Shown here piece after piece: positions 20,957-21,875 of a stretch of DNA of 31,720 nucleotides. Position 1 is the first letter of the stretch, and the number at the start of each line of letters is the position of its first letter. Location: the NCBI RefSeq assembly GCF_003334385.1, contig NZ_QOWN01000053.1; one strand, given 5' to 3'. This DNA is from Escherichia coli (GTDB lineage: Bacteria; Pseudomonadota; Gammaproteobacteria; Enterobacterales; Enterobacteriaceae). A model generated the notes under the pieces. It was not told the DNA's origin and made no database searches. It saw only the letters and a program-made list of their open reading frames with translations. The translations under genes were made by a program, and so were the position numbers.

Positions 20957-21202
20957 TCACCGGATTACCACATCCCACTCCGGCTCCTGCCATCTCAAAT
21001 CCGGTGAATCATTTCTCTCAGGAATAACCATTACGTCCTTTTCCCTTCGCTCCCTTTCTATCGCCATCACAGCCAATGCTGCAACCATGATGTATTTTTG
21101 TTCGTCGGTTCCTGTTTCATAACGACGCATGAGGGTAAACTCGGGGCGATCAGTAACCTCAATGATTTCGTTAATTTCTTTAATTTCGCGAGGAATATCC
21201 AT
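20957..21202 (-). CDS. Acidic small protein, function unknown (81 aa)
   Basis: MDIPREIKEINEIIEVTDRPEFTLMRRYETGTDEQKYIMVAALAVMAIERERREK... with AAGGAG SD 9 nt upstream; its ATG overlaps the ATG of the divergent gene at a CCATGG site. Confidence 0.4.
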   Translation of the reverse strand: MDIPREIKEINEIIEVTDRPEFTLMRRYETGTDEQKYIMVAALAVMAIERERREKDVMVIPERNDSPDLRWQEPEWDVVIR

Positions 21203-21875
21203 GGGTTTAGTCTCCTTTGATATCACATGCCCGCACTGTTTAAAAGAGCGAGCTGTTATTGAGGCATTTGCCGAAAAACAAATTGAAAAAACACCTTTTT
21301 TTAACGTCGCTTTTGTATGCAGAAGTTGTCATCGAGGAGGTGTTGCTATTGTTGAAATCCCATCAGACCACTATCACGGTCCCATGGCGGAAAGCCAGAA
21401 AAAAGACCTCGATATTCTGATTTCAGGAAATAGCCAGTACCGTTTCCGCAAGATCTATCCTGTGGTCAAAAAAATTACCGCACCAGAATATACGCCCCCG
21501 GTTGCAGACCGTACTTTTGTTGAGGCAAAAGAGGATTTACAGAGGAGGCGGTACGACACAGTGGTTATTCTTTGTCGCAGAGTCCTCGATATCTCCACGA
21601 AAAAACTGCTCGGCGATGAAGCAGGAAAAGAATCGCTGTCGCAACGTATTCAGATGATTTACAAAAAAGGCCTGATCACTGAACAGATGAAGGAATGGGC
21701 TCATATTGTACGAATTGATGCCAATAAAGCAGTTCATACAGATGAAGTTTTCACACCAATTGAGGCAAGCCAGATCCTGAGTTTTACCGAAATGTTTTTA
21801 GTCTACGCCTTCACTCTGCCTGCAATGGTGGAAGCCAGACGTGAACAAAAAAGATCAGATTCAGCCTCTATATGA
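21201..21875 (+). CDS. Zinc-ribbon plus DUF4145-like (possibly HEPN-like) protein, 224 aa; candidate single-gene defence/abortive-infection cargo
   Basis: N-terminal CPHC-x20-CRSC zinc-ribbon pattern; C-terminal ...EQMKEWAHIVRIDANKAVHTDEVFTPIEASQILSFTEMFLVYAF resembles the R-x3-N-x3-H core of DUF4145 as recalled. Opposite strand to flanking phage genes; own SD. Confidence 0.55.
   Translation: MGLVSFDITCPHCLKERAVIEAFAEKQIEKTPFFNVAFVCRSCHRGGVAIVEIPSDHYHGPMAESQKKDLDILISGNSQYRFRKIYPVVKKITAPEYTPPVADRTFVEAKEDLQRRRYDTVVILCRRVLDISTKKLLGDEAGKESLSQRIQMIYKKGLITEQMKEWAHIVRIDANKAVHTDEVFTPIEASQILSFTEMFLVYAFTLPAMVEARREQKRSDSASI

Follow-up and report, generated by a model that had tools for sequence, protein, structure and literature searches.

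We analysed a 31,720-nucleotide stretch of Escherichia coli DNA (contig NZ_QOWN01000053.1 of the NCBI RefSeq assembly GCF_003334385.1; hereafter the window, with positions counted from its first letter) and, within it, a plus-strand gene at 21201-21875 that encodes a protein of 224 amino acids. Judged from its sequence and structural model, this protein joins a predicted zinc ribbon to a DUF4145/HEPN domain in which the R-x3-N-x3-H motif is intact. A first-pass annotation had described it as a single gene and as candidate anti-phage cargo of a prophage. We found instead that in this clade it is half of a conserved cassette of two divergent genes, its start overlapping that of a conserved 81-amino-acid gene on the minus strand (20957-21202). 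Such a start-overlapping antisense partner, found in most members of the sub-family, has not been described before. Our preferred reading, to which we assign a probability of roughly 0.6, is that the 224-residue protein is a prophage-borne abortive-infection ribonuclease (RNase) of the lysogen, of the type represented by RAZR, and that the partner encoded in the lytic operon regulates or inhibits it.

The zinc-ribbon HEPN protein and its relation to RAZR

The HEPN gene (21201-21875, plus strand, stop codon included) is defined by its open reading frame (ORF), by a full-length match to PHROG 1305 (E 1e-63) and by the starts of its homologues. All 33 aligned homologues begin at the position of ATG 21201, with methionine followed by glycine, alanine or serine, and we therefore take this codon as the true start. 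It has the Shine-Dalgarno sequence of its own that the first-pass annotation had ascribed to it, GAGGAA at 21190-21195 on the plus strand, 5 nucleotides 5' of the ATG, and a similar motif is found for this gene in 24 of 25 distinct junctions of other loci. A longer frame from ATG 21129 (248 amino acids) was discarded, since all homologues start at the 21201 position and the Shine-Dalgarno sequence precedes it. Comparison with three other alleles returned ratios of non-synonymous to synonymous divergence (dN/dS) of 0.16-0.30. This purifying selection indicates that the HEPN gene is a working gene and not a chance ORF.

The N-terminal domain (residues 1-95; 21201-21485, plus strand) is composed of a Cys4 zinc ribbon and an extra beta/alpha sub-domain (about residues 51-95). 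The CPHC and CRSC pairs, already recognised as a zinc ribbon in the first-pass annotation, provide C10, C13, C40 and C43, all four invariant across the 33 homologues. In the AlphaFold 2 (AF2) model this domain is beta-rich, with strands at 4-6, 20-27, 33-40 and 46-52, a helix at 61-68 and a predicted local distance difference test score (pLDDT) of about 90; its profile matches weakly those of Rpb9/TFIIS-type zinc ribbons, including 1QYP. The C-terminal domain (residues about 96-212; 21486-21836, plus strand) has the alpha-helical bundle of the HEPN fold (Pfam clan CL0291). A profile hidden Markov model (HMM) search, the check originally suggested for it, returned a significant Pfam match to DUF4145 over residues 118-197 (E 8.1e-9), in agreement with the earlier assignment of the VRIDANKAVH block (21708-21737) to a DUF4145-like domain. 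This block contains the predicted catalytic motif R171-I-D-A-N175-K-A-V-H179 (21711-21737, plus strand), in which R171, D173, N175 and H179 are invariant across the 33 homologues. The spacing is Rx7H, from R171 to H179, and not the canonical Rx4-6H of HEPN proteins, and the loop 172-178 has a pLDDT below 50 in the AF2 monomer model. The mean column conservation is 0.48 for residues 1-90 versus 0.75 for residues 91-212, making the N-terminal domain the most variable part of the protein.

The same architecture is known from RAZR (PD-T7-4), the ring-activated zinc-finger RNase of E. coli UMB1727 (PDB 9Y9C and 9Y6U; Zhang et al., Nature 2026, PMC13017515). RAZR is a proven anti-phage RNase. Its N-terminal domain is a Cys4 zinc ribbon, and R146 and H154 (Rx7H) of its C-terminal DUF4145 HEPN domain are needed for defence (PMC13017515). 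It is inert alone, is not toxic when over-produced and acts as a single gene. It forms a 24-mer around the ~170 Å rings of phage portal proteins or of an Erf-like recombinase, and the ring-bound enzyme cleaves single-stranded RNA non-specifically, which aborts the infection (PMC13017515). Specificity is set by its zinc-finger domain, which varies more than the rest of the protein, and 1QYP is the ribbon used for comparison in the same paper (PMC13017515).

When the profile of our family was compared with the PDB, RAZR chain 9Y9C was retrieved (E 0.07), and in this alignment R171 pairs with R146 and H179 with H154; a phmmer search of the PDB with the HEPN protein gave no match. For a profile-profile comparison, the sequence of RAZR was reassembled from fragments in databases and an alignment of its family was made. 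The resulting hhalign match (E 7.8e-6) spans 91 columns, none of them outside the HEPN domain, and places N175 on RAZR N150. Neither full-length homology to RAZR nor a significant match to the HMM of the RAZR family was found, and NCBIfam contains no model for either the HEPN protein or the 81-residue protein. The HEPN protein is of a known kind, the defence RNases that combine a zinc ribbon with a DUF4145 HEPN domain, among which RAZR has been solved. On the strength of these alignments it forms a sub-family of its own, with the predicted architecture and motif of RAZR, and we do not assign it to RAZR proper.

The conserved motif also bears on a different reading of the protein, as a zinc-finger DNA-binding regulator of phage development whose HEPN-like domain is non-catalytic. 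PHROG 1305 is labelled DNA binding protein and RefSeq names the homologue of Shigella phage 75/02 in the same way; zinc ribbons often bind nucleic acids and some HEPN-fold proteins, for example MtlR, are regulators. Against this, the catalytic R and H of the RNase and the intervening N do not vary within the family and align with essential residues of RAZR, the gene is accessory and varies in position within prophages, and the DNA-binding label was apparently derived automatically from the zinc ribbon. We consider a regulatory role of this kind very improbable.

Two side observations concern the sequences compared here. A second E. coli allele of the RNase gene (loci L005/L006, 5001-5675) is only 71% identical to window 21201-21875, with a synonymous divergence (dS) of about 0.7-1.0, and its last 24 codons are almost unchanged (one non-synonymous and no synonymous difference); such a mosaic suggests that recombination within the gene has replaced one allele with another. 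Positive selection was sought between these two E. coli alleles and dN/dS was 0.14-0.44 in all segments, so that an arms-race signature was rejected in favour of an old mosaic allele. Many RAZR-family database entries (L134/L135, 4001-4507) are 146-169 amino acids long and start at or after the second CxxC knuckle. Their starts were probably called too far downstream, with the result that the zinc-finger domain dropped out of the annotation.

The divergent partner gene

The partner gene (20957-21202, minus strand) encodes 81 amino acids and matches PHROG 8371 (phrog_8371) over its full length (E 7e-56). The two genes overlap within a single CATG, the ATG of the small gene occupying 21202-21200 and that of the HEPN gene 21201-21203. 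As a consequence, each Shine-Dalgarno sequence falls in the first codons of the other gene: GAGGAA lies within codons 3-5 of the small gene, and AAGGAG of the small gene (21212-21217, minus strand) lies inside codons 4-6 of the HEPN gene. A comparable motif for the small gene is detectable in 11 of the 25 distinct junctions. An alternative start of the small gene at GTG 21226 (89 amino acids) was discarded, as the PHROG 8371 profile and all homologues start at ATG 21202. Divergence at the three codon positions (0.38/0.30/0.59) indicates that the small gene is translated. Its homologues share a common core motif, DRPEFTLMQRYE...DQK...ALIGKLIEQDR, and the AF2 model is a three-helix bundle (helices 3-16, 20-30 and 33-57; pLDDT 81).

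The arrangement is conserved well beyond the window. The CATG overlap is present in 60 of 94 loci, corresponding to 25 distinct junctions, and a search of IMG/VR with the small protein returned 32 loci, every one of which (32/32) has the RNase gene in the same 2-nucleotide overlap. Prophages of Yersinia and Paraburkholderia keep it at RNase identities of only 49% and 36%, respectively. The database search with the HEPN protein returned 83 homologues, and those with a named source come from Enterobacterales, plus two distant relatives of which one is named Paraburkholderia. The small-protein family is tiny, with 38 representatives among 1.84 billion proteins; two of its remote members are paired with an RNase gene and one is an orphan in a phage early operon. 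Orphan small genes, without the RNase gene, were also detected in phiSTEC1589-Stx1c and in about 12 E. coli genomes (hits H62-H70 included), some of them in Stx (Shiga toxin)-type prophages.

One of these remote pairs (L128, 2325-3396) encodes a 225-amino-acid DUF4145 protein and a 131-amino-acid homologue of the small protein, with the 2-nucleotide start overlap retained. This pair sits between giant polyvalent proteins (ddrB-ParB/PBECR3 and ART-PolyVal/LPD3), and hence the cassette also travels in elements unlike lambdoid phages.

These distributions have to be weighed against a simpler view, in which the HEPN protein is a RAZR-like defence that needs no second gene and the small ORF is a conserved early gene of the phage with no connection to it, the two being paired through shared inheritance at a recombination hot spot and not by function. 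Several facts agree with it: RAZR needs no partner (PMC13017515), a clade of 212-residue proteins and an int-adjacent clade have the RNase gene but not the small gene, the orphans just described show the small gene alone, with the homology in phiSTEC1589-Stx1c breaking exactly at the junction, and 96%-identical small proteins stand beside RNase alleles that are only 71% identical. Inheritance alone fits less well with an exact overlap kept down to 36% RNase identity, in Paraburkholderia as well as in the non-phage polyvalent-protein element, with the complete pairing in IMG/VR, with the joint movement of the pair between pR and pL operons, or with a small-protein family that is almost confined to this pairing. 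We regard this simpler view as unlikely, though by no means negligible.

The tight linkage of the two genes could also be that of a toxin-antitoxin (TA) or addiction module, in which the HEPN RNase is a constitutive toxin, the small protein its antitoxin, and the effect stabilisation of the prophage rather than defence. HEPN toxins with small antitoxins are common, 7AE6 and 5YEP are among the top structural matches of the HEPN protein, and an adjacent Gp49/HigA pair indicates that the region tolerates TA modules. However, in many lineages the RNase gene is intact although its small neighbour has decayed or has been truncated or lost (L007, L010, L036, L037 and L053-56), a condition that would be lethal for a true toxin, and over-produced RAZR is not toxic (PMC13017515). 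The partner is therefore probably neither an essential antitoxin nor essential for the RNase gene. The divergent antisense layout, moreover, does not permit toxin and antitoxin to be expressed in the co-ordinated, stoichiometric manner that type II TA operons typically show: instead of obligate co-occurrence and co-transcription, we found divergent genes and an RNase kept without its partner. An addiction module is thus an improbable explanation of the cassette.

Strand, position and spread of the cassette

The window is a lambdoid prophage of the 933W/Sepvirinae type that lacks stx. Its identity to Escherichia phage PhiR5_2 is 98.5-99.8%, with 99.8% across the cassette region. The flanking replication and nin genes run on the minus strand, as originally reported, in the order cro, cII, O, a DnaC-like loader, YdaW/DUF1627 and LygF/DUF977 ('Ren-like'), followed by Ant, NinB, RusA, NinH and others. 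The small gene lies on this lytic-operon strand. Three plus-strand genes occupy the LygF-Ant interval, namely those of a Gp49/HigB-like toxin, of a helix-turn-helix (HTH) HigA-like protein and of the zinc-ribbon HEPN protein. Orientation against the surrounding operon is a general property of the HEPN gene: among 91 distinct loci, 86% of the flanking coding bases are on the other strand, and in each of five further contexts it is the only gene on the strand opposite to its neighbours. The sites themselves differ. In Enterobacter the homologues adjoin int/xis and in Citrobacter the small terminase gene; in Yersinia they separate the replication genes from the nin genes, and a Paraburkholderia prophage has one in an early region. 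The cassette of PhiR12_3 is located in the early-left (pL) region.

The cassette is accessory, being present in 36 of 5,426 complete E. coli genomes. Comparison of neighbourhoods, as proposed in the first-pass annotation, revealed other genes in the slot in related phages. In phiSTEC1589-Stx1c (L004, 4906-5966) it holds an unrelated minus-strand gene of 166 amino acids, and the homology ends exactly at window position 21198, at the shared start-codon junction. The HEPN gene is therefore not a conserved core gene, and neither of the computational outcomes that had been named in advance as speaking against a defence gene, a missing DUF4145/HEPN match or a core position in all related phages, was observed. 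At the same time, the HEPN family is widespread in prophages of Enterobacterales and is present in Stx-type phages.

The end of the gene is less clear-cut than first described. A GC-rich hairpin does follow the stop codon; its 7-bp stem (21899-21905 and 21912-21918) and 6-nucleotide loop place it at 21899-21918 rather than at 21889-21913, and its folding energy is near -14.5 kcal/mol (z -2.2). As neither strand shows a U tract and a terminator scan made no call, we rejected it as a canonical terminator. It sits between the convergent HEPN and LygF genes and overlaps the LygF stop; the stem-loop may thus serve either transcript or both. Many homologues have a stronger stem-loop 3' of the stop, some with a U tract. 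The proposal that the gene is a moron is borne out as far as its opposite strand, its accessory spread and the stem-loops downstream of its homologues are concerned, and falls short in that a promoter and a terminator of its own were not found in the window. Taken together, strand, stem-loops and spread are, as far as sequence can tell, the behaviour of a moron expressed in lysogeny.

These features also argue against an RNase that serves the lytic programme of the phage itself, through host shut-off or RNA processing, and not defence. Such a role would suit a gene located within the region of the early-right operon, and RNases are known from phages. It is at odds with a strand opposite to every lytic operon around the RNase gene, with a strong stem-loop after the stop in homologues, some with a U tract, and with the existence of related phages without the gene. 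We give it very little credence.

The two other plus-strand genes of the interval were initially described as a TA pair adjacent to the HEPN gene. The pair is real, a Gp49/HigB-like toxin gene at about 20263-20604 (plus strand; Pfam PF05973, E 6e-27) and an HTH HigA-like antitoxin gene at 20594-20902 (plus strand; PHROG 1373 regulator), annotated as HigB/HigA in PhiR5_2; the adjacency is interrupted by the minus-strand small ORF. We treat these as context genes on the HEPN-gene strand, which may at most be candidate members of the system. Plus-strand transcription from the pair, just upstream of the antisense small ORF, could continue into the RNase gene, and PhiR12_3 has another TA-like pair at the equivalent relative position. 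On the other side, the LygF/DUF977 gene (21908-22345, minus strand; PHROG 142, 'Ren-like exclusion protein') is convergent with the RNase gene. In a Yersinia prophage with the RNase/small-gene pair (L012/L013, 9490-10410), a gene with a BstA_C domain lies directly downstream of a cI-like repressor and represents a second candidate defence gene, in the lysogeny module. Finally, the window contains three copies of a direct repeat of ~60 nucleotides (25011-25073, 25105-25163 and 24239-24324). Two of them fall within a 72-amino-acid minus-strand ORF (25001-25219) that separates cII from O, and the other falls within the O-like replication gene. The peptide PQQPEAD recurs in their translations, and they could be an origin- or iteron-related sequence or a duplication.

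Proposed mechanism and comparison with known systems

The mechanism that we propose combines RAZR with Tha/Ith of Staphylococcus phage 80alpha (Rostol et al., Nat Microbiol 2024, PMC11087260). Tha is a prophage HEPN RNase triggered by a structural (tail) protein of incoming phages. Ith is a 66-amino-acid inhibitor, encoded antisense and adjoining tha, that is made in the lytic cycle and prevents autoimmunity; orphan ith-type genes in other phages are evasion factors (PMC11087260). By analogy with RAZR, the RNase would be made in the lysogen and be harmless alone, and its variable zinc-ribbon domain would recognise a multimeric protein of a superinfecting phage. Once bound, this trigger would place the HEPN domains in their active configuration, and RNA would be cut indiscriminately, with translation and the infection brought to a halt. 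If Tha/Ith is the model, the RNase gene would be expressed while pR is repressed. Upon induction, N-antiterminated transcription from pR would run antisense through the RNase gene, dampening it and producing the small protein. As a regulator or inhibitor, the latter would keep the portal or other ring proteins of the prophage itself from triggering self-abortion, and the orphan small genes of related phages would act as evasion factors. A prophage with such a sensor would need self-protection because its own portal ring is made on induction.

Within this scheme, the most specific element is also the most tentative: that the 81-residue protein is a dedicated inhibitor or switch of a novel type for a RAZR-like RNase, so that lytic transcription, from pR or pL, both silences the RNase gene and makes its inhibitor and thereby confers self-immunity, is in our view possible, with the odds against it. 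Self-protection may also come from a trigger variant that escapes recognition, as reported for HepS of Gifsy-1 (PMC13043305), in which case the small gene would be a bystander.

Several observations weigh against a RAZR-type RNase with a lytic partner. The PADLOC model PD-T7-4 is the top match of the HEPN protein and yet is weak and partial (E 0.0022, 15.5 bits). The zinc-ribbon domains of the two proteins do not align in hhalign, and ours has an extra sub-domain of ~45 residues between ribbon and HEPN domain; for these two reasons ring sensing may not apply here. A defence role is proposed by analogy with a distant relative, RAZR, and the role of the small protein is hypothetical. No similarity of the small protein was detectable to Pfam, PADLOC, NCBIfam, the PDB or Ith-1. 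Intact RNase genes without a functional partner, already mentioned, belong here too, and the contrast in L005/L006 between 96% identity of the small proteins and 71% of the RNase alleles suggests no sign of tight co-evolution. A search upstream of the RNase gene in the window gave no convincing sigma-70 site, and no promoter was found for either gene; no more than 4 diverged loci have weak TTGATC-16-TAxxxT sites at -75.

The question matters because RAZR is a bacterial RNase that is switched on by wrapping round rings of phage proteins, so that a prophage carrying a similar enzyme, which makes a portal ring itself, faces a conflict. The HEPN family described here is a natural test of how this conflict is solved, and the 81-residue protein is a candidate small inhibitor of a RAZR-like enzyme. 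Were the partner an inhibitor, relatives of Shiga-toxin phages would circulate an anti-defence gene, and its orphans would be evasion genes against RAZR-like enzymes. Were it not, a new sub-family of zinc-ribbon HEPN defence candidates would still stand, with a divergent sensor domain that could reveal new triggers.

DUF4145 HEPN domains have been found in other defence contexts, as in BxaP (PMC10799925) and Ishtar1 (bioRxiv 10.64898/2026.07.06.735840), and both zinc-ribbon fusions of DUF4145 and its occurrence in double-stranded DNA viruses were already listed by Anantharaman et al. 2013 (PMC3710099). These proteins differ from ours in their partner domains (HEAT-like, a beta-rich C-terminal domain, restriction endonuclease or helicase) and in the order of their domains, and their descriptions mention no divergent small partner. 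HepS (Salmonella prophage Gifsy-1; PDB 9OIK; Sargen et al., Nature 2026, PMC13043305) lacks a zinc ribbon and is from another HEPN family. It cuts tRNAs at the anticodon and avoids self-targeting through a non-triggering tail-tip variant rather than a partner gene. DS-38, from the DefensePredictor screen (bioRxiv 10.1101/2025.01.08.631726), is an E. coli defence protein reported as validated, with a HEPN domain and a zinc finger. Its HEPN part alone aligns with PD-T7-4, the same relationship that we found here; the screen drew mainly on strains of the E. coli reference collection (ECOR), and the name of PhiR5_2 suggests an ECOR origin. By description, the level at which the two were compared, DS-38 and the HEPN protein may belong to the same family, although DS-38 is reported as a single protein with no partner mentioned.

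With RAZR the HEPN protein shares a length of ~220 amino acids, two CxxC knuckles about 27-30 residues apart with CPHC as the first, an identical R-x3-N-x3-H spacing (R171/N175/H179 versus R146/N150/H154), a most variable N-terminal domain and carriage on mobile elements. Unlike RAZR, it is encoded in lambdoid prophages, on the anti-operon strand and with a conserved divergent small partner, whereas the one RAZR-family locus examined is an integrase island with no such partner.

The comparison with Tha/Ith is one of layout. Profile comparisons of both our proteins with Tha-1 and Ith-1 in hhalign gave probabilities below 1%, and Tha has no zinc ribbon. The genes tha and ith converge with a 3' overlap, while the two genes of the cassette diverge with a start-codon overlap, and inhibition is established for Ith and only hypothesised for the 81-residue protein. 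In both systems a small protein is encoded antisense beside the HEPN gene and has orphan copies in other phages. If the partner does inhibit the RNase, the principle of Tha/Ith, an antisense architecture that couples defence to the phage life cycle, would extend beyond the phages of Gram-positive bacteria to the lambdoid phages of E. coli.

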